Made by a program: the position numbers and the translations under genes. The notes below the pieces were generated by a model, which ran no database searches, was not told the DNA's origin, and saw only the letters and a program-made list of their open reading frames with translations. This document shows positions 1 to 10,948 of a stretch of 10,948 nucleotides of DNA, piece after piece (the first letter of the stretch is position 1; each line of letters begins with the position of its first letter). The DNA lies in assembly GCA_003135555.1 (NCBI GenBank), contig PLCF01000007.1, positions 1 through 10,948 on the forward strand, given 5' to 3'. The stretch is from Vulcanimicrobiota bacterium (lineage in GTDB: Bacteria; Vulcanimicrobiota; Vulcanimicrobiia; Vulcanimicrobiales; Vulcanimicrobiaceae).

Positions 1-411
1 CACGCGGTGCTCACGCTGCCGGGGATCGCGGGCTTCGTGCTTTCGATCGGTATGGCCGTCGACGCCAACGTCCTGATCTTCGAGCGGGTCAAGGAAGAGC
101 TGTGGGCCGGAAAGTCGCTGCGCGTCGCGGTGCGCATCGGCTTCCAGCGCGCGTTCAGCTCGGTCTTCGACTCGCACTTCACCACCATCGTCGGTGCGGG
201 CGTGCTGTACTTGCTGGGGACCGGCACGGTGAAGGGCTTCGCCTACACGCTCTTCTGGGGCACTGCGTTCTCGCTGGTGACCGCCGTCGTCATCACGCGC
301 TTCTTCATGGACGTCGTGGTCGAGAACAATCTCGTCACCTCGAAGGCCGCCTACGGCGCCGGCGGCCCCGGCCCGGCCGCGACGATCGCCCCCGCGGAGG
401 CGCGACACTAG
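1..411 (+). CDS. secD: Protein translocase subunit SecD, C-terminal part (5' truncated by the window edge)
   Basis: Frame open from base 1. Contains the SecD signature LTLPGIAGxxLSIGMAVDANVLIFERVKEEL and GTGTVKGFAYTL. The TAG at 409-411 overlaps the secF GTG. Confidence 0.97.
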   Translation, partial: HAVLTLPGIAGFVLSIGMAVDANVLIFERVKEELWAGKSLRVAVRIGFQRAFSSVFDSHFTTIVGAGVLYLLGTGTVKGFAYTLFWGTAFSLVTAVVITRFFMDVVVENNLVTSKAAYGAGGPGPAATIAPAEARH

Positions 412-1781
412 TGTTCTTCCGCAACCTCAATTGGAACGTCGTCGGCTGGTTCCGCACCGTCTCGGCGATCTCGTACGCGTTCATCATCGCCGGCCTGCTC
501 TTCATGGGCTACCACTGGATCCGCGACGGTTCGCCGCTGCGGCTCGGGCTGTCGTTCACCGGCGGTACCGACGTCACGGTGAAGTTCAAGGCCCCGACCT
601 CCAAGGACGCGATCGCCGCCGCGCTGGCGAAGATCAACGTTACCGACGCGCGCATCAACACGCTGTCGAAGGCGGGCGAGCCCGCCGACGAACGCTGGAC
701 CGTGGAGACGCAGACCGACGTCGGCAACCATTCGGCGCCGTTCTGGCAAGCGCTGGGCAGCGTCGCGCCGGTCGATCGCGGAGCGTCTTCGATCTCGACG
801 GTCGGCCCGTCGCTCTCGCGCGAGTACCTCTTCAACGCCATCAAGGCGCTGCTGATCGCGATCGCGATCCAGTTCTTGTACATCGCGTTCCGCTTCGGCT
901 GGAATCTGATCTTCGGTTGGGTCTGCGTCGTCGCGCTGGTGCGCGACTCGCTGATGATGATCGGCATCTACGCGATCGCCGGAAGACGGGTGGACGACGC
1001 CTTCTTGGCCGCGGTCTTGACGGTGATCGGCTACTCGGTCATGGATACGATCGTCATCCTCGACCGGATCCGCGAGAACGTCAAGCTCATGGACGGCAAG
1101 CCGTTCGACGAGATCGTCAACACGTCGATCCTGCAGACGATGACGCGCTCGGTGAACACGCTGGCGACGGTCGTCATCACGCTGATCGCGCTGGTCACCT
1201 TCGGCGGCGCTTCGTTGCAGAATTTCGCGTTCGCGCTGCTGGTCGGCATCTGTTCGGGCGGCTATCACTCGATCTTCTTCTCGGCTCCGCTCGTCGCGGT
1301 GATGCAGAAGCGGGCCAAGCGCAGCAGCATCTTCCGGCGTTCGTCGCTGACCCCCCAACCCCGCACCGTCGCCGCAGCGCGCGGCGGCAGCTCGGCCGGG
1401 GCGCAGCGCGATCGCGAGGCGGTGGCCGCGGCGCGGCGCACGCGGCGCGAGCTCGAGCGCCAAGGTGCCTCGCGGCGGACGACGCAGCCGCCGCGGTACA
1501 AGCGCACGCCCCAAGAACAGATCGACTTCGAGAAGTTGGAGAATCGCAACTTCGGCGCGCAGCTGCCGGTCAAGCCCGAGCCGCAGGTCGCCGACGGCGA
1601 GGCCGATCCGATCGACCCGCTCGACGCGCAGTCGATGGGGCTGCACGACGAGGCGGCGGAGCTGGGCCACGAAGCGATCACGCTCAACCTCGGTGACGAC
1701 GACGTGCCTGCCGACGGCGAGATCAAACTCGACCTCGACAAGCCGGCGGCACCCGAACCCGAACACAAGACGATCCCGTAG
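411..1781 (+). CDS. secF: Protein translocase subunit SecF (456 aa) with a ~157-aa charged C-terminal extension
   Basis: Motifs LGLSFTGGT, TVGPSLSRE, YIAFRF, AAVLTVIGYSVMDTIVILDRIREN, TMTRSVNT and GGYHSIFFSAPL. GTG start at 411 (TAGTG overlap with secD) with GGAGG at 396-400. The ORF-track start at 102 is an artefact. Confidence 0.96.
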   Translation: MFFRNLNWNVVGWFRTVSAISYAFIIAGLLFMGYHWIRDGSPLRLGLSFTGGTDVTVKFKAPTSKDAIAAALAKINVTDARINTLSKAGEPADERWTVETQTDVGNHSAPFWQALGSVAPVDRGASSISTVGPSLSREYLFNAIKALLIAIAIQFLYIAFRFGWNLIFGWVCVVALVRDSLMMIGIYAIAGRRVDDAFLAAVLTVIGYSVMDTIVILDRIRENVKLMDGKPFDEIVNTSILQTMTRSVNTLATVVITLIALVTFGGASLQNFAFALLVGICSGGYHSIFFSAPLVAVMQKRAKRSSIFRRSSLTPQPRTVAAARGGSSAGAQRDREAVAAARRTRRELERQGASRRTTQPPRYKRTPQEQIDFEKLENRNFGAQLPVKPEPQVADGEADPIDPLDAQSMGLHDEAAELGHEAITLNLGDDDVPADGEIKLDLDKPAAPEPEHKTIP

Positions 1782-1843: not shown

Positions 1844-3796
1844 ATGAAGCTTCCGCCGCCCACGCCCTCGGAGGCCGCGTTCGAGCGGCTGCTCGAGCAA
1901 TTCTCCGTTGCCTCGCCGCCGTCGACCGCGAGCGCGGTTGACGCTGCGCCGGAAGCGAGCGCATTCCTCGACCAGCTCTACGCCAACGCGCACGAGTTTC
2001 TCGACCGCGATCCGTATGCGACGATCGGCGCCGCGAGCGGCTTCAACACCAAAGTCGTGGGGGTGAGCTTCGAGGGGCGTCAAGACGTGGTCGCGGCGCT
2101 GCGTCCCGGCGAGGCGGTGGAGCTGCGCCGGGATCGTGCCAATCGGTTCGATCCCAACGCGATCGGGGTGTGGTTTGGCGCGCTGCAGCTGGGTTTCATC
2201 CGGCGCGAGATCGCGGCGCGCATCGCGCCCAACGTCGATGCCGGCGAGCGCTACGGCGCCGAGGTCACCGCGGTGACCGGGGGTGGGACGCGGTCGTTCG
2301 GGATCAACATCTACGTCACGCGGTTGCGCGAGGCGACGCCGCGCGGCGAGTCGCCGCGCGCGGCCGCGGCGCGCGAGGACGTTCTGCCGTCGCTGATCGG
2401 CGAGCAGCCGCTGCGCGAGGCGCAGCGCGCCGTGCTCGAACGGCTCGACGCGGGACGCAATACGCTCGCGGTGATGGGGACCGGGCGCGGGAAGTCGCTG
2501 TGTTTCCAGTATCCCGCAGCCGTCCGCGCGCTCGAGCGCGGTCACAAGACCGTCGTGCTCTACCCGCTGCGCGCCTTGGCGAACGATCAGTTCGATGCGT
2601 TGGTGCGGCGGCTCGCGCCGCTGGGGCTACGCATCCACCGGGCCAACGGTGCGATCGACGCCGCCGAGCGCGCCGCGCTCAACGATGCGCTCGAATCGGG
2701 TGCCTGGGATCTGATCTGCGCGACGCCTGAGTTCGTGCAGTTCCATCTCGAGCGATTTCGCGGCGAGCTCTCACGGCCGGCGCTCGTCGTCGTCGATGAA
2801 GCCCACCATCTGGCCGAGTCGACGCATCGGCCGGCGTACCAGCGCATCGGTGCGGCGATCGAAGCGCTGGGCGATCCGCAGGTGCTCGCGCTGACCGCGA
2901 CCGCCGGCGACGACGCCTTCGCGAAGATCCGCGCCGCGCTGCGCATCGACGCCTGGGTCATCGACCCCACGGTGCGCGACAACCTGCACGTGGTCGACGC
3001 TCGCGGGACGACCAACAAGCTCGCGTATCTCGAGCGGCTCGTCAGCGACGGAGCGAAGGCGATCGTCTACTGCAACTCGCGCACCGAGGCGACCAAGATC
3101 GCTCAGAAGCTGCATGCCCGCGGCGCGGCGGCGGTCGCCTTTTACCATGCGGGGGTGGGGACGGCCGAGCGAGCCTACGTCGAGAAATTCTTTCGCGAGG
3201 GCGCGATTCGCGTCGTCGTCGCGACGTCGGCGTTCGGGGAGGGGATCGACCTTCCCGACGTGCGCCACGTCGTGCTCTACCATCTCAACTTCGACTTCAC
3301 CGAGTTCAACCAGCAAGCCGGACGGGCGGGCCGCGACGGCGCCGACGCTTCGATCCACCTGTTGTTCGGCGAGAGCGACCGCAACATCAACGATTACCTC
3401 ATCGAACGCGAAGCGCCGACGATGCAGACGCTGCGCCGGCTCTACGCTGCGATGAAACGCTTGACGTCGGACGGGATGCTGCGCATGACGCCCGCCGACG
3501 TCGCCGCGACGCTGGGGTTCGACCGCGTCGAGGCCGGGACGATCACGGCCGCGGTGCGTATCTTCGCCGATGCCGGGATCGTCGACGTCGGCGAAGATGA
3601 CGACGGGCGCTACGTGCGCTTTCTTTCGGTCGACGGCAAGGTCGACTTGGGCAAGTCGGAGCGCTATGCCGAAGGTGAGGCGACGCGCGAGGCCTTCGCG
3701 CGCTTCGCCGAGATCGCGCTGACGGCGCAGGCCGGTGTCCTCGAGGCCGTCATCGACCGCCCGATTTACCCCAGCGCCGTACCGCTGTTGCGCTGA
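1844..3796 (+). CDS. HIRAN-domain RecQ-like DEAH SF2 helicase with a RecJ-C-terminal-like domain (alternative GTG start at 1781)
   Basis: HIRAN-like segment TKVVGVSFEGRQ...LRRDRANRFDPNAIGV...LGFI (about 2042-2323). SF2 motifs GTGRGKS, LYPLRALANDQ, TPE, VVDEAHH, LTATA, IVYCNSR, YHAG, ATSAFGEGIDLPDVRHV and QQAGRAGRDG. Both ATG 1844 and GTG 1781 are in frame. Confidence 0.9.
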   Translation: MKLPPPTPSEAAFERLLEQFSVASPPSTASAVDAAPEASAFLDQLYANAHEFLDRDPYATIGAASGFNTKVVGVSFEGRQDVVAALRPGEAVELRRDRANRFDPNAIGVWFGALQLGFIRREIAARIAPNVDAGERYGAEVTAVTGGGTRSFGINIYVTRLREATPRGESPRAAAAREDVLPSLIGEQPLREAQRAVLERLDAGRNTLAVMGTGRGKSLCFQYPAAVRALERGHKTVVLYPLRALANDQFDALVRRLAPLGLRIHRANGAIDAAERAALNDALESGAWDLICATPEFVQFHLERFRGELSRPALVVVDEAHHLAESTHRPAYQRIGAAIEALGDPQVLALTATAGDDAFAKIRAALRIDAWVIDPTVRDNLHVVDARGTTNKLAYLERLVSDGAKAIVYCNSRTEATKIAQKLHARGAAAVAFYHAGVGTAERAYVEKFFREGAIRVVVATSAFGEGIDLPDVRHVVLYHLNFDFTEFNQQAGRAGRDGADASIHLLFGESDRNINDYLIEREAPTMQTLRRLYAAMKRLTSDGMLRMTPADVAATLGFDRVEAGTITAAVRIFADAGIVDVGEDDDGRYVRFLSVDGKVDLGKSERYAEGEATREAFARFAEIALTAQAGVLEAVIDRPIYPSAVPLLR

Positions 3797-3834: not shown

Positions 3835-4011
3835 ATGAGTAGCGTCGCGATGTTCCGCCTGCGCCTGTTGATCGAGAACGGGCTCTTCGCCGCGCTCGTC
3901 ATCGCGATGCTCGTTTGGAAGCCGGTGTGGTGGATCGCCGTCGCCGCGGTCGTCTGTTACGTGGTTGTGGCGATCCTGTTGCACCGTATGATCCCGCCGC
4001 CGAGCCGCTAG
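3835..4011 (+). CDS. Small two-transmembrane hypothetical protein (58 aa; alternative ATG at 3850)
   Basis: Translated by hand: MSSVAMFRLRLLIENGLFAALVIAMLVWKPVWWIAVAAVVCYVVVAILLHRMIPPPSR*. It has two hydrophobic stretches split by KP and GC-rich third positions, and it fills the gap exactly. Its stop shares CTAG (4008-4011) with the convergent gene. Confidence 0.7.
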   Translation: MSSVAMFRLRLLIENGLFAALVIAMLVWKPVWWIAVAAVVCYVVVAILLHRMIPPPSR

Positions 4012-4496
4012 CAGCCCGCAGGCGGATACTTCGCGCCGTCGACCACCACCCATCCGTTGGCGGCGCCGCGATGTGTCGCGCAGTGCACGTCGTGGATACC
4101 CGCGACGAACGGCCGTTGGCCGGGCGTCGTGCGGAAGTACTGCCCCAGCGCGAACACCGTCGCGCCGCGCGGGGCCGTGACGTGGCCGTCGAGCACGTCG
4201 TTGGTGACGACCTCGACGAGCGCGCTGTGGCCCGCGGGATCGAGCGGCACGCGCAGCGGGATCAACTGGTGGCTGCCGTGCGGGCCCGCGCGCTGCGGGC
4301 GCGACGGCCCGAAGGCGGTCCCGCACACCATGATGCCGTCGACGGGTCCGTCATGCTGCTCGGCGACCAGCTGGGCGAGGCGCGCGTTCACCGCGGCGCT
4401 GCAGCTCGCCGGAACGCTTGCATCGCCGGCGCTCCCCGAGCACGCGCTGGGGGCAACGAGCGACGCGCTCAGCGCGGCAACGAGGATCGAACGCAT
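4008..4496 (-). CDS. Exported putative lipoprotein, DUF3465-like (162 aa)
   Basis: ATG at 4496 gives the signal peptide MRSILVAALSASLVAPSAC. The pattern GSHQL...N...GQY...GIHDVH...H...GWVVVDGAKY matches my recollection of the DUF3465 conservation pattern (HQ..N..GEY..IHWTH..H..GW...G..Y). Confidence 0.7.
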   Translation of the reverse strand: MRSILVAALSASLVAPSACSGSAGDASVPASCSAAVNARLAQLVAEQHDGPVDGIMVCGTAFGPSRPQRAGPHGSHQLIPLRVPLDPAGHSALVEVVTNDVLDGHVTAPRGATVFALGQYFRTTPGQRPFVAGIHDVHCATHRGAANGWVVVDGAKYPPAGC

Positions 4497-4558
4497 GCCG
4501 CAGCGTTCGACGTGGTGCCCCCAGGGCCCACGCCCAGCTCGGGACAATGGACGAATCG

Positions 4559-5002
4559 ATGCGTGCCGCCGGCCTCGTCCCGATCGCCGCCCTCGCCGTC
4601 CTTTTCGGCGTCTCCGGGTGCACGAACTCAACGTCGACCGAGGCGCCGCACGCGCACGCACCCGCGCCCAAGAACCCCGATCTCAGCGACGTGATGGAGC
4701 GGTTCTACCAGCAGGTCGAGGGCGGCCACTGGGCCATCGCCTACGGGATGCTTTCGCCGCGCTACCGGGCGCGCCTGACGCAGCAGCAGTTCGCGGACCG
4801 CTACGTCGTTCTGGTCGACCCGAACGTGCGCGCGCGCCAGCTCTCCGACCGAACCGTCGTCGCGTGGCTCGACGCCGGCGATCGGGCGCACTCCGGCCGT
4901 GCGGTGCACGTCCGCGAAACGGTGACCCTCGCCTGGGACGGCGAGCAGTGGACGATCGATGCGATCGAGCGGCGCGGCATCAGCCCGGGCGATACGCGCT
5001 GA
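4559..5002 (+). CDS. Putative lipoprotein, probable NTF2-like fold (147 aa; alternative ATG at 4547)
   Basis: Signal peptide ending in the lipobox VSG-C, followed by a low-complexity linker. The pattern VMERFYQQV...AYGMLSP...QQFADRY...VTLAWDGEQWTID is typical of NTF2-like lipoproteins. The 3' end overlaps the convergent GT gene by 23 nt. Confidence 0.72.
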   Translation: MRAAGLVPIAALAVLFGVSGCTNSTSTEAPHAHAPAPKNPDLSDVMERFYQQVEGGHWAIAYGMLSPRYRARLTQQQFADRYVVLVDPNVRARQLSDRTVVAWLDAGDRAHSGRAVHVRETVTLAWDGEQWTIDAIERRGISPGDTR

Positions 5003-6146
5003 GCAGCTCCCCGACGACCGGCGCGGCGCGAAAGCGTTCGGCATCCCGGCGCGCGCGCGCGCCCATGCGCTCGCGGCGGCTGCGGTCGTCGAGCAGCGCC
5101 GCGATCGCGCCGGCGAGCGCGCGCTCGTCGGCGGCGGGGACGGCTACGCCGTTGACGCCGTCGTCGAGCCACGTGCGCACACCGCCGACATCGTAGGCGA
5201 TCACCGGACGGCCGCGCGCTAGGGCTTCGATCCCGGTGTATCCGAACGGTTCCGCCCAGAGCGAGGGCAGCACGACCAGCGCCGCGTCGTCGATCGCGGC
5301 GCGCACCGTCTCGGCCGGCACGCGGCCGGGCGCGTCGAGGTTGACCCCGGCTCGCGCCGCCTCGTCGCGCGCAGCGGCCAGCTCGGAACCGTCGCCGAAC
5401 GCGCGCACCAGCGGGCGTGCGTCCGCGGCGATGCGTGATACCGCGCGGATCAGCGATCCCAGCCCTTTTTGCGGGACGACCCGGCCGGCGAACACGATTG
5501 AGCGTTGCGCCGGCGCTGCGACCTGCTCGGCGTAGGCGTCGTCGGGGAGCGGCAGCGGGATCTCCACGATGCGCTCGCGCGGGATGCGGCTCTGCGCGGC
5601 GCGCTCGGCGACGTAGCGCGACGCCGCGATCACCGTGTCGGCCGCGGCGATGGCGTCGCGCAGCTGTACGCGGCGCCGGATCAGCGCGAGCGTGCGCGGC
5701 CGCAGCCCGTACGCGCAGCCGTCGGTGACGGCGTGCAGAACGCACGCGCGGCCCAACGCCCGGGTGCAGTTGCGTCCGCTGCGCGGAAAGACGCGGTCGC
5801 CGTTGGGGCAGCACGGGCGGTGATCGTGGATGTGATAGGCCAAGCGCGGTGCTGCACGCAGCTCCGTCACGATCCCGGCATCCATCACGTTGTGCGCGAC
5901 CGCGATGTCAGGGCCGAACTCGGCCAGGGCGCGCCGCGCCTCCGACCGCGCCGCGCCGTCGGGGGGATCGTGTTCGTCGGCCCAAGCGACGCGCTGCGCG
6001 GTGACGCCGGCAGGGACGGCGTCGACCTCGCGGGCGAGCACGTGCAGCGTCGCACCGCGCTCCGCCAGCGCCGCCAGCACGATCTCCACGTAGCGCTCCA
6101 TCCCACCAGCTCGGCCGAGCCGCTCAACGGCGACGAGGATTCGCAT
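4980..6146 (-). CDS. Glycosyltransferase family 4 (GT-B fold) with a Cys-rich insert (388 aa)
   Basis: Starts MRILVAVE...GGMERY. Contains HIHDHRPCCP, FAGRVVPQKG and PSLWAEPFGYTGIEALARGRPV (ExF-x4-EA motif). ATG at 6146 overlaps the upstream TGA by 1 nt. Confidence 0.92.
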   Translation of the reverse strand: MRILVAVERLGRAGGMERYVEIVLAALAERGATLHVLAREVDAVPAGVTAQRVAWADEHDPPDGAARSEARRALAEFGPDIAVAHNVMDAGIVTELRAAPRLAYHIHDHRPCCPNGDRVFPRSGRNCTRALGRACVLHAVTDGCAYGLRPRTLALIRRRVQLRDAIAAADTVIAASRYVAERAAQSRIPRERIVEIPLPLPDDAYAEQVAAPAQRSIVFAGRVVPQKGLGSLIRAVSRIAADARPLVRAFGDGSELAAARDEAARAGVNLDAPGRVPAETVRAAIDDAALVVLPSLWAEPFGYTGIEALARGRPVIAYDVGGVRTWLDDGVNGVAVPAADERALAGAIAALLDDRSRRERMGARARRDAERFRAAPVVGELLSAYRPG

Positions 6147-7231
6147 CAGGCGTGTGCCGCCAGGGCGCGCGCGTACGCTTCGAGCGTCGCCGTCCCGGTA
6201 CGCTGCCAGGTCAGCGCCCCCAGGCGCCGTTCGAGCGTGTCGCCGCGGTCGCGCGGGCCGCGGTCCAGCGCGCGCAGCACCGCGGCGCGGATCGACGCGG
6301 GGTCGGCGGGATCGGCGTAGTCGACGTCGGAGCCGAAGTACTCGCGTTCGCAGCCGCGGTCTCCGGCCACGACGCGTGCGCCCGTCGCCGCCGCTTCGAG
6401 CGAGGCCAGTCCCGGACTCTCCAGCCACGACGGGTGCGCGTGGACGGCCGCCTGCGACATCATGCGCACGACCTCGTCGTGCGGCGCGTGCTCGACGAAG
6501 CGCGTGCGCGGCGTCGACCACCGTTTGCACAGCGCGAGATAGCCCGGGTCGTGCGCGCCGCCGACGATCGTCACGTCGACGTCCACGTCACGCAGCGCGT
6601 ACAGCAGCGCGGCCTGATTCTTCTTGGGCTCGACGCGGCCCGCGCAGAGCACGCCGGACCGTGCGCGCGGACGCTCGAGGGCGAACGCCTCGTCGTCGAC
6701 CCCCAGCGGTGCGACGACGAACGGTGTGCCCGAGACGCGCAGGCGCTCACCGTAGAGGTATGCCTCGACCTCGCTGGCCGGCAGCAGCACGTCGGCGGCC
6801 AGCGCGAGCGCGCGTTGGGCGTGCAGGCGCCGGTCGGCGTTGCGGGCGATGCTCCCGCGCCAGGGCAGCTCGGATTCGATGCGGTGCAGCCGCGCCAAGC
6901 GGTGCTCGACCGCGGCGGCGGCGCGCGCCGCCAGCGCGCGTTCCACCCGCGGAGCGACGGCGAAGAAGGCGCGCAGGTCGAGCCAGATCGGCGAGAGCAC
7001 CAGCGGGGTGCCGTGCGCGCGGATCGCGCCGATCTGCTTCGCGGCGCGCTCGGGTTCGAAGATGCCGAAAACGTGCGCGACGTCGTACCCGCGCGGATCG
7101 GGAGCGTCGGTGAAGACGAGATCGACGTCGGCGCCCAGCGCGCGCAACGCCGTCGCGGTGCGCTGCGCGTGCACGATGTCGCCGCCGTGCTTGCGAGCGC
7201 CGTCGGCGCGCGCGACCAGCAGCGCCCTCAC
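6146..7231 (-). CDS. Glycosyltransferase family 4 (361 aa)
   Basis: Motifs GGDIVHAQRT, AGRVEPKKNQ and PSWLESPGLASLEAAATG. GTG start in a GTGA overlap with the upstream stop. Confidence 0.92.
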   Translation of the reverse strand: MRALLVARADGARKHGGDIVHAQRTATALRALGADVDLVFTDAPDPRGYDVAHVFGIFEPERAAKQIGAIRAHGTPLVLSPIWLDLRAFFAVAPRVERALAARAAAAVEHRLARLHRIESELPWRGSIARNADRRLHAQRALALAADVLLPASEVEAYLYGERLRVSGTPFVVAPLGVDDEAFALERPRARSGVLCAGRVEPKKNQAALLYALRDVDVDVTIVGGAHDPGYLALCKRWSTPRTRFVEHAPHDEVVRMMSQAAVHAHPSWLESPGLASLEAAATGARVVAGDRGCEREYFGSDVDYADPADPASIRAAVLRALDRGPRDRGDTLERRLGALTWQRTGTATLEAYARALAAHA

Positions 7232-8250
7232 GCTAACGCCGCGACCTCACCCAGCACGCCCAGCGTTTGCGTGGTGCAGCGCTCCCACGAGAACGCCGCC
7301 GCGCGCGCCGGACCGCGCGCGCCCAAGGCTGTGCGCGCGGAGTCGTCGGCCAACAGCGCGCGCAAACTGCCGGCCCATGCCGCCGGGTCGTGGGCGTCGT
7401 CGACCCAGGCCGCGGCGTCGCCGCCGACCTCCGGGAGCGATCCCGCGCGCGCCGCCAAGGTGGGCGTGCCACACGCCATCGCCTCGAGCAGCGGGAACCC
7501 GAAGCCTTCATAGGTCGACGGGACGGCGACCAGCGCCGCGCCGCGGTACAGCCCGACCAGCGCGGCGTCGTCGGGTGCATCGACGACGACGCCGCCGCGC
7601 GGCAGCACCGGCGGCCGGCGGGTGAACGCCAGCATCACGTCGCCGCCCGGGAACGCGCGCTCGAACGCATCGATGAGCGTGCGCGTGTTCTTGCGCTCGT
7701 CGTGGGCGCCGACGTGGAGGACGTAGCGGCCGTGCAGCCCGGCCGGCAGCGGGCCGCCGGCGCCGGGCGTGAAGGCCGCGTCGACCGCCAGCGGCGTGAC
7801 CACGATGCGCGCCGCGTCGACGCCCAGTCGCCGTTCCACCTCGCCGGCGGTGAACTGCGACTGAACCAGAATGCGTCGGGCGGTCGCGGCGGTAGCGAGA
7901 AATGGGTTTTGTTCGGTCGCGCGCCGGCGCGCGTCGGCGGCGGGGAACGCGAACGGCGCCGCGTCGTGGACGGTGGCGACGGCCGGCACGTCGGTGCGCA
8001 CGAACATCCCGTTCCACGGAAACCATGCGACATCGGCGTCGGGCGGGATGCGCCGAGCCACGGTCACCGTTGCTTGCCCGATCGCGTGCGCGATCGCGCT
8101 GCGCTTGGGCCACAGGTCGCGCACGACGAAGGTCCAGCGGAAGGCCGGGTCGCGCACCGCGCGCGACAGCACCGCGCGAGCGTACCGGCCGATACCGCGA
8201 TCGTCGCGCGCGAGATTGTGTGCGTCCACCGCGACGTGGACGCGCCTCAC
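7228..8250 (-). CDS. Glycosyltransferase family 4, MtfB/WbaZ-like mannosyltransferase type (340 aa)
   Basis: Motifs VAVDA...RGIGRYA, TVHDAAP, SQFTAGEV, RKNTRTLI and PSTYEGFGFPLLEAMACGTP. The GTG at 8250 forms a GTGA overlap with the stop at 8247-8249. The ORF-track start at 8571 is too far upstream. Confidence 0.92.
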   Translation of the reverse strand: MRRVHVAVDAHNLARDDRGIGRYARAVLSRAVRDPAFRWTFVVRDLWPKRSAIAHAIGQATVTVARRIPPDADVAWFPWNGMFVRTDVPAVATVHDAAPFAFPAADARRRATEQNPFLATAATARRILVQSQFTAGEVERRLGVDAARIVVTPLAVDAAFTPGAGGPLPAGLHGRYVLHVGAHDERKNTRTLIDAFERAFPGGDVMLAFTRRPPVLPRGGVVVDAPDDAALVGLYRGAALVAVPSTYEGFGFPLLEAMACGTPTLAARAGSLPEVGGDAAAWVDDAHDPAAWAGSLRALLADDSARTALGARGPARAAAFSWERCTTQTLGVLGEVAALA

Positions 8251-9080
8251 CCACGGCCTTTCGGGCACGGCGGCAAGTCGGTGTAGCCTCCTTGATCGGT
8301 ATGCTTGATGATGTATTGGATCAGCGGCGGAAAGGTCGACGGGTCGCTGCCCGCCGGCGGGAAGCGCAGGGTGGTGACGAAGTTCGGGTTCTTCAAGTTC
8401 GTGTCGGACCATGGATCGGTCTGCTCGCCGTTGGGATACGGCCACACGTACGGAAAGCGCGCGGTCTCGGTGTGACCGTCGGGGAAGCTCACCGTCGCCT
8501 GGACCGGCTCGAACGCGGTGCCGTTGGAATACCTCGGCGCCGCGGTTGGTTTGAAATCGACGAAGCCGCACGGCGAGTTCGCGTTGACGGCGCCGTTCCC
8601 GGTCCCGGTGTTGCCGCTGCCTGTTCCGCCCAGGCCGCCGCCGGTTCCCGGGGCTTGACCGCTGCCGTTGCCGGGGCCCGAGCCGGTCCCTGCCCCGGCG
8701 GCATGCGGGTCGGCATACGTTCCCGTCGGCGCCTTAGCGATCGCCTTGTGCGCGCCGCCGCCGCGGTGCCGCGCCGGGTGGCCCTTCGCACGGGCCGCAA
8801 TCTGCTGGACCGGTGCCGGGGTGCTGTGCGGCGGCGGCGTGATGCGCGGCTCGGGCGTCGGCGGTTGCGTCGGCTGCGGCGTGGGTGTCGGTTTGGGCGT
8901 GCGTCGCGGCGTCGGCGTCGGACGCGGCGTCTCCATGACGATGCGCGTCGCCACCGCGTCGCGCTCGGTATCCGCCGTGTGATCGGGGCCGTGAAGAAGA
9001 CCCAGGGCGATCTCGTGCGATCCGATGGCGAGCGCGACGGCGACGATCATGCGATCGCGGTAGCGCCTCAAGTCGATCAC
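8247..9080 (-). CDS. Membrane-anchored Pro/Thr- and Gly-rich protein with TonB-like architecture and an unrecognised C-terminal domain (start uncertain: 9080, 9050 or 9113)
   Basis: Basic N-terminus, then a His-containing TM (IVAVALAIGSHEIALGLL), a TPRPTPTPRRTPKPTPTPQPTQPPTP linker, a GAGTGSGPGNGSG Gly-rich stretch, and a ~115-aa globular domain bounded by two Cys. The GTG at 9113 lies inside the terminator stem, so 9080 is preferred. Confidence 0.75.
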   Translation of the reverse strand: MIDLRRYRDRMIVAVALAIGSHEIALGLLHGPDHTADTERDAVATRIVMETPRPTPTPRRTPKPTPTPQPTQPPTPEPRITPPPHSTPAPVQQIAARAKGHPARHRGGGAHKAIAKAPTGTYADPHAAGAGTGSGPGNGSGQAPGTGGGLGGTGSGNTGTGNGAVNANSPCGFVDFKPTAAPRYSNGTAFEPVQATVSFPDGHTETARFPYVWPYPNGEQTDPWSDTNLKNPNFVTTLRFPPAGSDPSTFPPLIQYIIKHTDQGGYTDLPPCPKGRG

Positions 9081-9103
9081 GATGCGTTCTCTTCGGCGGG
9101 ACG

Positions 9104-9130
9104 AAAAAGCCACCCCGGGCGGGGTGGCTT
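9104..9130 (-). terminator. Rho-independent terminator downstream of the 9163-9456 gene
   Basis: Perfect 10-bp stem AAGCCACCCC-(4 nt)-GGGGTGGCTT (9107-9130). On the minus strand it ends ...GGGGTGGCTTTTT. Confidence 0.8.
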
Positions 9131-9608: not shown

Positions 9609-10127
9609 GTGAGCGTGCCCATCGAACAGCTGATCCGCGCGATCCCCGACTTTCCGATTCCCGGGATTCTGTTTCGCGACATCACCCCGCTGTTGGCCGA
9701 TCCGAAGGGCTTTCAAGCGACCATCGACTTGTTCGTGGAGCGCTTCCGCGACGCTCGGGTGGAAGCCGTGGTCGGGATCGAAGCACGCGGTTACATGCTT
9801 GGAGCACCGGTGGCCTACGCGCTGGGCGCGGGGTTCGTCCCGGTCCGTAAACCCGGCAAGCTCCCCGGCGAGAAGTTCAGCGAGCAGTACGCGCTGGAGT
9901 ACGGGACCAACACCCTGGAGATCCACGCCGACGCCGTCGGGCACGGCCATCGGGTCCTCGTGGTCGACGACCTGCTCGCCACCGGCGGCACGATCGCCGC
10001 GACCCTGCGGCTGCTCAAGAAGCTCGGGGCGAACGTGGTCGGGACCGCCGTCCTCATCGAGCTCGAAGCCCTAGGCGGCCGAGCCGCCCTCGAAGACGTC
10101 GAGCTGACGAGCTTTATACGGTATTAA
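9609..10127 (+). CDS. apt: Adenine phosphoribosyltransferase
   Basis: Motifs IPDFPIPGILFRDITPLL, GIEARGY, RKPGKLP, YALEYG and the PRPP-binding VLVVDDLLATGGT. Length 172 aa; located directly upstream of rel. Confidence 0.98.
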   Translation: MSVPIEQLIRAIPDFPIPGILFRDITPLLADPKGFQATIDLFVERFRDARVEAVVGIEARGYMLGAPVAYALGAGFVPVRKPGKLPGEKFSEQYALEYGTNTLEIHADAVGHGHRVLVVDDLLATGGTIAATLRLLKKLGANVVGTAVLIELEALGGRAALEDVELTSFIRY

Positions 10128-10322: not shown

Positions 10323-10948
10323 ATGACCATCACCGATCTCGTCACCAAGCTCCAGCAGTACGACCCGTCGCTGGACGGGGCGTGGCTGGAACGCGTCTAC
10401 GAGACCGCCGACCGCGCGCACGAGGGTCAGCACCGCGCCTCGGGTGAGTCCTACATTGCCCACCCGCTCTCGGTCGCCGACATCCTGGCCGACTTGGAGA
10501 TGGACCGCGACACGATCGCGGCGGCGTTGCTGCACGACGTCGTCGAGGATACCGTCCTCACCAACGAGGAGGTGGCCGAGCAGTTCGGCGCCGAGATCGC
10601 AGCGCTCGTCGACGGCGTCACCAAGCTCACCCGCATCCCGTATCAATCCAAAGAAGATGCGCAGGTCGAGAACTTGCGCAAGATGTTCCTGGCGATGGCC
10701 AAGGACATCCGGGTCATCATCATCAAGCTCGCCGACCGCCTGCACAACATGCGCACGCTGGCGAGCTTGCCGGCGCCCAAGCAGCAGGCTATCGCGCGCG
10801 AGACGATCGAGATCTACGCGCCGATCGCGCACCGGCTGGGGATCTGGCGTGTGAAGTGGGATCTCGAGGACCTGTCGCTGCGCTACCTCGACCCCGACGC
10901 CTACCGCGACATCGCCGAGCGCGTTGCGAAGAAGCGCGTGGAGCGCGA
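10323..10948 (+). CDS. rel: Bifunctional (p)ppGpp synthetase/hydrolase Rel (RelA/SpoT family), N-terminal part, 3' truncated; absent from the ORF track
   Basis: Translated by hand: MTITDLVTKLQQY...AHEGQHRASGESYIAHP...AALLHDVVEDT...LVDGVTKL...ENLRKMFLAMAKDIRVIIIKLADRLHNMRTL...YAPIAHRLGI. The HD hydrolase motif is intact. An in-frame TAA at 10302 fixes the start. Confidence 0.97.
   Translation, partial: MTITDLVTKLQQYDPSLDGAWLERVYETADRAHEGQHRASGESYIAHPLSVADILADLEMDRDTIAAALLHDVVEDTVLTNEEVAEQFGAEIAALVDGVTKLTRIPYQSKEDAQVENLRKMFLAMAKDIRVIIIKLADRLHNMRTLASLPAPKQQAIARETIEIYAPIAHRLGIWRVKWDLEDLSLRYLDPDAYRDIAERVAKKRVER

Follow-up and report, generated by a model that had tools for sequence, protein, structure and literature searches.

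Widening gaps and trimming nascent strands at stalled forks is, in bacteria, the textbook task of the RecQ helicase together with the RecJ nuclease, which as separate proteins act in RecF-pathway resection and fork processing (E. coli, B. subtilis, D. radiodurans). In eukaryotes, the HIRAN domain of HLTF/Rad5 recognizes single-stranded DNA by its 3'-OH end. Many Gram-positive anaerobes fuse RecJ, a HIRAN domain and a helicase in one protein; the fused enzyme appears to be unstudied, and among open-access papers and bioRxiv preprints we found none on the RecJ-HIRAN-helicase fusion, on a nuclease-less protein of this kind, or on RecJ in Eremiobacterota. Here we describe a gene, called HQ below, on contig PLCF01000007.1 of a Vulcanimicrobiota bacterium (assembly GCA_003135555.1); the whole stretch of DNA that was analyzed (10,948 nucleotides, nt) is referred to as the window. 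HQ encodes a conserved, motif-intact RecQ-type helicase with a HIRAN domain in front and a winged-helix tail behind. We read it as a stand-alone HIRAN-RecQ-like helicase that has lost the nuclease part and would work in gap or fork processing, guided by 3' ends, and we give this overall reading a probability of roughly 0.6. The nuclease-less, family-wide form of the RecJ-HIRAN-helicase family is newly described here (the fused form is already known from databases). The gene and the features of its product are as follows (aa, amino acids; SF2, superfamily 2).

1844..3796, plus strand: HIRAN-RecQ-like helicase gene (HQ), 650 aa from the ATG at 1844
1850..1894, plus strand: conserved N-terminal peptide LPPPTPSEAAFERLL, residues 3-17 of the 650-aa form
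2042..2326, plus strand: HIRAN domain (PF08797), with the motif N100-R-F-D103-P-N-A-I (650-aa numbering)
2381..3340, plus strand: RecQ-type SF2 core with two RecA-like lobes (DEAD and Helicase_C, TIGR00614)
2477-2497, plus strand: Walker A GTGRGKS (motif I)
2795-2809, plus strand: DEAHH (motif II)
3311-3334, plus strand: QQAGRAGR (motif VI)
3356..3793, plus strand: C-terminal domain as modeled, consisting of a helical hairpin, a winged helix (about nt 3419-3631) and a helical tail

Database gene calls for an identical protein (P0002) also use the ATG start and give 650 aa; translation from a GTG at 1781, which lies 21 codons ahead of the ATG, would give a 671-aa reading, and either start is possible. 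We note that in the TAGTG at 1779-1783 the stop codon TAG of secF shares one base with the GTG opening the helicase frame. The window has a G+C content of 66-75%, and the genome from which its contig comes is 3.57 Mb in size and 84% complete. According to the Pfam results, the 671-aa reading contains three domains, HIRAN, DEAD and Helicase_C (ten families are listed at E<=1), and neither DHH, DHHA1, RecJ_OB nor PF10141 is found in the helicase protein at E<=1. The full-length model has a predicted local distance difference test score (pLDDT) of 87.3 and a predicted template modeling score (pTM) of 0.77 (41 aligned sequences). An earlier note on this DNA, made from the letters alone, had divided the frame into three modules (2042-2323, ~2381-3370 and ~3416-3790) and had seen no DHH or DHHA1 motif; its limits agree with the Pfam and NCBIfam matches and with the predicted structure, and the missing motifs are paralleled by the absence of recJ (TIGR00644) from a six-frame search of the window genome. 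HQ is a single-copy gene in the genomes of the family. Residue invariance was judged on 41 sequences (19 nuclease-less and 22 fused).

The HIRAN domain, which the earlier note had called as well, is recognized above the gathering cut-off: PF08797 matches residues 88-155 of the 671-aa reading (nt 2042-2245) with an E-value of 1.1e-9 and 38.4 bits, as compared to a cut-off of 24.7, and scores 42.3 bits in the six-frame genome search. Its beta-strands cover residues 66-161 of the 650-aa form in the predicted structure, and K70, G73, F76, R79, Q80, R96, N100, D103 and A106 are invariant. The nearest solved HIRAN relative by sequence is the bacterial stand-alone protein lp_0118 (3k2y_A, E 1.5e-5). 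In the sequence alignment, the NxYDxNAI-type motif is in register with the HIRAN chains of HLTF; in HLTF, the aspartate of this motif touches the 3'-OH.

In the helicase core, Pfam DEAD covers residues 213-376 (nt 2417-2908, E 5.7e-30) and Helicase_C residues 413-520 (nt 3017-3340, E 1.7e-23), both in 671-aa numbering, and motifs I (GTGRGKS), II (DEAHH), III (TAT) and VI (QxxGRxGR) are invariant in the 41 sequences. The closest solved chains by sequence are bacterial RecQ cores (E 2e-40). Structural comparison gives the same neighbors: Foldseek on the full model retrieves RECQL5, E. coli RecQ and C. sakazakii RecQ at an E-value of about 1e-22, and the top matches of VIA-align are RecQ-family cores (Z 22-24 over 354-415 residues). 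The NCBIfam model TIGR01389 scores 225.2 bits vs a cut-off of 640.2. The window genome also encodes a canonical RecQ with zinc-binding, RQC and HRDC domains (C45), and a second RecQ-like paralog of 545 aa (G000:C62, L125:1230-2867) has a zinc-binding domain and, at its C-terminus, weakly matches a PcrA/UvrD tudor domain. Both of them differ from HQ in architecture, which speaks against a grouping with ordinary RecQ/RecS helicases of the same architecture, one of the outcomes that the earlier note had named as fatal to its proposal.

The tail folds as a winged helix in the model, and no HRDC-like part is seen in it. The RecQ zinc-binding subdomain is absent, because the tail is cysteine-free (in the sequence, no Cys follows residue 440 of the 671-aa reading, i.e. 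in the C-terminal 230 residues). Modeled alone, the tail (a winged-helix tail from about residue 526 of the 650-aa form) reaches a pLDDT of 89.1; Foldseek finds only weak MarR-type winged-helix matches for this model (best E 1e-3), and many winged-helix proteins match its residues 22-92 (Z 7-9.6). The only match to the whole domain, from a wide VIA search, is the C-terminus of S. aureus RecJ (8y30_A 635-756, Z 9.5), with 117 residues aligned at a root mean square deviation of 5.6. PF10141 (ssDNA-exonuc_C, cut-off 26.4 bits) has no direct match in the window protein at E<=1; it matches the aligned region of two fused relatives, P0147 (34.9 bits) and P0157 (33.7 bits). The description of this tail as RecJ-C-like in the earlier note is therefore not confirmed by a direct family match and holds in substance, transitively through P0147 and P0157 and structurally through 8y30.

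A search for longer homologs returned 705 proteins at E<=0.001. All 120 longer matches listed (1176-1262 aa) contain DHH, DHHA1, RecJ_OB, HIRAN, DEAD and Helicase_C, and they cover 88-95% of the window protein at 37-45% identity; among the matches listed are proteins from Thermincola ferriacetica (P0127), Coriobacteriia, Peptococcaceae and Eubacteriales. Long RecJ-HIRAN-helicase fusions, which the earlier note had mentioned for Coriobacteriia, do exist, in Bacillota as well as in Coriobacteriia; they are about 1200 aa long and are annotated simply as 'single-stranded-DNA-specific exonuclease RecJ'. In a BLASTP alignment, residues 57-666 of the 671-aa reading align with residues 571-1197 of P0147 (39% identity, 629 columns, E 2e-152); RecJ_OB of P0147 ends at 564, and the homology to the window protein begins just after it, leaving 56 extra N-terminal residues in the window protein before the alignment. 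Judged by sequence, the window protein is the exact non-nuclease part of a RecJ-HIRAN-helicase fusion, collinear with P0147 from just after RecJ_OB, as had been proposed. A domain tally over the 150 best representatives from a library of 1.84 billion proteins, with rows truncated at contig ends left out, gave 44 proteins with RecJ, HIRAN and helicase, 24 with RecJ and helicase and without detectable HIRAN, and 5 stand-alone HIRAN-helicases, 2 of them from the window clade and 3 metagenome singletons. Three stand-alone HIRAN-helicases of 642-673 aa (P0251, P0252 and P0273) are each separately nested among fused forms in the tree; such proteins might come from split genes, from truncated gene calls or from independent losses of the nuclease, and a scan for the P0251 locus found only one distant match (26% identity).

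The best 120 matches of similar length (567-706 aa, 69-100% identity) all have HIRAN, DEAD and Helicase_C, and the source names indicate Eremiobacterota (Vulcanimicrobiota), with Ca. Elarobacter, Baltobacteraceae and Vulcanimicrobium alpinum (WPS_28300) among them. Nearly all of the 80 loci kept from species-representative genomes (54-80% identity) are labeled with the phylum of the window. We sampled 201 genomes of the class, of which 200 have a completeness of 90% or more. At an ortholog threshold of E<=1e-80, an ortholog is present in 177 of the 178 sampled genomes of the window's family (175/176 without genomes G207 and G212) in addition to the window's own genome, and in none of the genomes of two other families of the class (0/4 and 0/18). 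Many source records, a number of them from the Joint Genome Institute (JGI), name the protein 'single-stranded-DNA-specific exonuclease', which is a misnomer because the protein has no nuclease domain.

The missing nuclease is also absent from elsewhere in these genomes. The earlier note had asked for recJ to be located elsewhere in the genome; with TIGR00644 we found it neither in the window genome nor in any of the 201 genomes of the class (the control for this search was positive in 13 of 14 reference genomes). A phylum sample of 61 genomes gives the wider picture, with recJ in all 40 genomes of 16 other families, in 0 of 18 genomes of the window's class (window genome included) and in 0 of 3 genomes of one further family. 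Using the N-terminal part of RecJ as a tblastn query, we obtained no match in the 80 public loci and none in L030 and L031, which are loci from the two other families of the class; an intact recJ right beside the helicase gene, which would have spoken against the proposal, is thus seen within 4 kb in 0 of 80 loci. The only DHH protein in all five family genomes examined is an open frame of 330-357 aa; in the window genome it lies on another contig, has 347 aa, and resembles NrnA, with a score of 75.8 bits that falls far short of the equivalog cut-off; it is not a RecJ. Three families, two of the same class (f2 and f3) and one of the same phylum (f11), have neither recJ nor the HIRAN-helicase (0/4, 0/18 and 0/3 genomes).

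The other genes of the window are listed below.

3..1781, plus strand: 3' part of secD/secF (SecD_SecF_C, E 1.7e-50), directly upstream of the helicase gene
4008-4661, minus strand: 217-aa open reading frame (ORF) without a family (no Pfam, NCBIfam or PADLOC match)
4980-8571, minus strand: three GT4 glycosyltransferase genes between the helicase gene and apt
8247-9113, minus strand: 288-aa proline-rich ORF, a stretch of which weakly matches TonB and SslE models
9609..10127, plus strand: apt, adenine phosphoribosyltransferase-like (Pribosyltran, E 3.4e-18)
10323..10948, plus strand: 5' part of a RelA/SpoT-type gene (HD_4, E 2.3e-57)

The upstream neighbor is constant: secF lies directly upstream of the helicase gene on the same strand in all 12 fetched loci and in all 65 public loci for which 1200 nt or more of upstream sequence was available, mostly at a distance of 2-100 nt. 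HQ thus closes the secDF string, at the place that recJ takes in related bacteria. The downstream region differs between genera; of the 12 fetched loci, 3 have apt within 7 kb, and of the 80 public ones, 1 has it within 4 kb. Among the other families of the phylum, L034, L035 and L036 have apt immediately after recJ, L043 shows recJ-apt and L042 recJ-apt-rel, and rel comes after recJ in L038, L039 and L040. The claim that HQ occupies the slot of recJ is therefore real as far as apt-rel is concerned, with minus-strand genes inserted before apt in the window. We also observed that L030-L033, loci of the families f2, f3 and f11 that have neither recJ nor the HIRAN-helicase, have no apt or rel after secF within about 9 kb. 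The SecD/SecF frame runs about 155 residues past SecD_SecF_C (1311-1781, residues about 437-592), with a charged, proline-rich end. The GT4 cluster was seen only in two same-genus relatives (L018 and L019), two same-genus relatives have the 217-aa ORF at about 70% identity, and the 288-aa ORF, which has no family, is kept in close relatives.

The recJ genes of the other families bear on where the nuclease-less form came from. Their RecJ frames are long (840 and 859 aa in the two that were checked), and at 3 of 10 such loci (L034, L035 and L036) tblastn detects weak similarity, past the OB domain, to the second lobe and the tail of the helicase. At L035 (5161-5940, minus strand), hhalign matches the C-terminal 259 residues of the 840-aa RecJ to residues 381-638 of the helicase with a probability of 98.2% (E 4.8e-14); helicase motifs V and VI have been lost, and the HIRAN domain and the first lobe are deleted. 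The alignment identifies this RecJ tail as a decayed copy of the second RecA-like lobe and the winged-helix tail of the helicase. Because a sister-family RecJ carries such a decayed helicase lobe and tail, the fusion probably predates the diversification of the phylum. We propose that an ancestral recJ gene carried the helicase module and that the nuclease part was lost in the lineage of the window, while sister families of the phylum would have kept the nuclease as the helicase decayed. The simplest reading of these sequences seems to us to be a single ancestral fusion from which opposite parts decayed in the two lineages. The earlier note had left it at a helicase that was 'split from or lost its exonuclease'; loss is the better supported of the two, and a split fits less well.

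What the nuclease-less proteins have in place of the nuclease is a short N-terminal peptide. LPPPTPSEAAFERLL is kept in all 19 family orthologs that were aligned (P4, P6 and R15 are nearly invariant), precedes a low-complexity linker whose length varies widely, and is without an equivalent in the fused RecJ-HIRAN-helicase proteins of the alignment. A helix is predicted at residues 8-20 (pLDDT about 72). The peptide may be a docking motif, and we list it as a candidate.

We also surveyed repair genes in the window genome and in four family relatives. A RecG-like gene is present in the family genomes (641-657 bits, just below the cut-off of 659), recO in 4 of 5 (it is missing only from the incomplete window genome), and xseA, for the large subunit of exonuclease VII (ExoVII), in 5 of 5. 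An AddB-like PD-(D/E)XK protein of 771 aa is encoded next to a UvrD-like helicase gene (G000:C66:74500-80500, L127), the two forming a short AddAB/AdnAB-like pair; the AddB-like protein is the only PDDEXK_1 match in 4 of 5 family genomes searched, and G045 has two further large matches. With a canonical RecQ and a RecG-like gene present, HQ is an extra, specialized helicase and not the only one of the cell, and nucleases other than RecJ are at hand.

From its domains, we infer that HQ functions as a 3'-end-guided RecQ-like helicase. The HIRAN domain would capture the free 3'-OH end at a gap, a primer-template junction or a stalled fork, and the RecQ-type motor would unwind from the captured end, presumably in the 3'-5' direction as RecQ does, with duplex DNA or a partner held by the winged-helix tail. 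The fused relatives would pass the displaced 5' strand on to RecJ; in the family of the window, degradation of this strand may be left to unlinked nucleases or may not take place at all. The protein would thereby act in gap or fork processing beside the canonical RecQ and RecG.

Several observations weigh against this reading in one part or another. The HIRAN region is only weakly similar to the HIRAN chains of HLTF (E 0.13). The score of TIGR00614 (recQ_fam; residues 201-560, nt 2381-3460) is 203.1 bits, close below the cut-off of 219.8, and the zinc-binding (PF16124), RQC (PF09382) and HRDC (PF00570) domains of RecQ have no Pfam match in the window protein. Polarity, 3'-end binding and substrate are all carried over from family membership. 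Three families (f2, f3 and f11) do without both genes, and the helicase is therefore no necessary replacement of RecJ. Finally, in trees for which five other RecQ-like helicases served as outgroup, the nuclease-less sequences form a clade (support 99) that is not nested within the fused forms; it is sister to all 71 other members sampled, 68 of which are fused (FastTree 97, 83 rows), and IQ-TREE (LG+G4) recovers the same sister placement from a 45-row subset, with a value of 98 in the SH-like approximate likelihood ratio test (SH-aLRT).

This placement makes a recent transfer from one sampled fused lineage unlikely, and the trees alone allow an ancestral stand-alone helicase that was later fused to RecJ elsewhere. 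The helicase would then never have had a nuclease, the stand-alone protein would be the ancestral form, and the fusion with RecJ would have arisen later in Bacillota/Actinomycetota lineages. We regard this history as improbable, although both trees place the clade as it predicts: HQ sits in the position of recJ before apt-rel, its homology to the fused forms begins exactly at the linker after RecJ_OB, the RecJ of a sister family carries the decayed second lobe and tail of the helicase, and both trees are flagged for amino-acid composition bias and have their root on a distant outgroup. If the missing nuclease half were instead taken as the mark of a broken recJ gene that is decaying as a functionless relic, the intact frame and the catalytic motifs, which are invariant in orthologs down to 54% identity, would have no explanation; such conservation requires purifying selection, which excludes a dead relic and makes this the least credible of the alternatives. 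An anti-phage defense helicase of the DpdF or PsyrT kind was considered and rejected. PADLOC does report DpdF (244.8 bits) and PsyrT (194.9 bits) over residues 198-563, and the NCBIfam DpdF model (NF041063) gives 130.1 bits; these matches cover the generic RecQ core only, the NCBIfam score is far below the cut-off of 550, no dpd or toxin-antitoxin partner was recognized in the window with Pfam, NCBIfam or PADLOC, and a single-copy, family-wide gene fixed after secF is unlike a mobile defense island, so that a role of this kind is very hard to credit.

Two further alternatives concern the function of the protein. An HLTF-like remodeler would reverse or restore stalled forks independently of a nuclease, with the HIRAN domain gripping the nascent 3' end and the motor driving strand exchange. 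The HIRAN domain is present with its core motif kept, a nuclease is neither fused nor adjacent, and BLM, WRN and RECQ1 of the RecQ family remodel forks in vitro. We nevertheless find it unlikely: HLTF belongs to the SNF2 double-strand DNA translocases, a motor class other than that of the RecQ-type helicases, a RecG-like gene, for the usual bacterial enzyme of fork reversal, is already present in the family genomes, and the normal fusion of this HIRAN-helicase to a 5'-3' exonuclease points to unwinding for degradation, not regression. The helicase might otherwise be one half of a two-part resection machine that feeds the 5' strand to a nuclease recruited in trans, possibly via LPPPTPSEAAFERLL, which is strongly kept in the 19 orthologs ahead of a variable linker and is absent from the fused proteins; the genome offers ExoVII, the AddB-like PD-(D/E)XK protein and the NrnA-like DHH protein as candidates. 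No conserved partner gene lies beside the helicase, where the downstream genes differ between genera, and the peptide might just as well dock in cis or contact single-stranded DNA-binding protein (SSB), the clamp or RecA, and we hold such a machine to be a minority possibility. A more far-reaching version, which we offer as speculation and think unlikely, combines these elements: the class would have dispensed with RecJ, one family would have kept the free HIRAN-RecQ protein as the first bacterial HLTF/Rad5-like remodeler, and the new docking peptide would replace the link to the nuclease or recruit another partner. The stand-alone, 3'-end-guided helicase that has lost its nuclease part remains the reading that we prefer.

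The family provides a reciprocal natural dissection of the fusion, in which the HIRAN-helicase half is kept alone, under strong selection and family-wide, in genomes without RecJ. This makes HQ a clean protein with which to ask about the role of HIRAN in bacteria, including the targeting of a RecQ motor to 3' ends, and it raises the question of RecF-pathway repair without RecJ in a major soil phylum, most of whose members are uncultured. It also corrects the widespread misannotation described above. Vulcanimicrobium alpinum, a named organism that has been cultured, has an ortholog (WPS_28300); experiments should therefore be feasible.

Compared with known systems, HQ shares with RecQ the motor, its nearest solved relatives being the bacterial RecQ cores 4q47, 4tmu and 1oyw, and differs from RecQ in having no zinc-binding subdomain, no RQC or HRDC match in Pfam, and an added HIRAN domain. 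Unlike in the RecQ and RecJ pair, there is no RecJ in the window genome for the helicase to work with. It resembles HLTF/Rad5 in its PF08797 match above the cut-off and in the alignment of the NxYDxNAI-type motif, whereas the HIRAN domain is joined here to a RecQ-type helicase and in HLTF/Rad5 to a SNF2 translocase with a RING domain. The model of its tail matches the whole C-terminal domain of S. aureus RecJ (8y30, PF10141), yet this tail follows a live helicase and not a nuclease. The closest relatives are the RecJ-HIRAN-helicase fusions, with which the HIRAN domain, core and tail are collinear and which have the same invariant catalytic and HIRAN residues; the window protein is without their DHH, DHHA1 and OB domains (about 570 residues) and has a lineage-specific peptide and linker instead.

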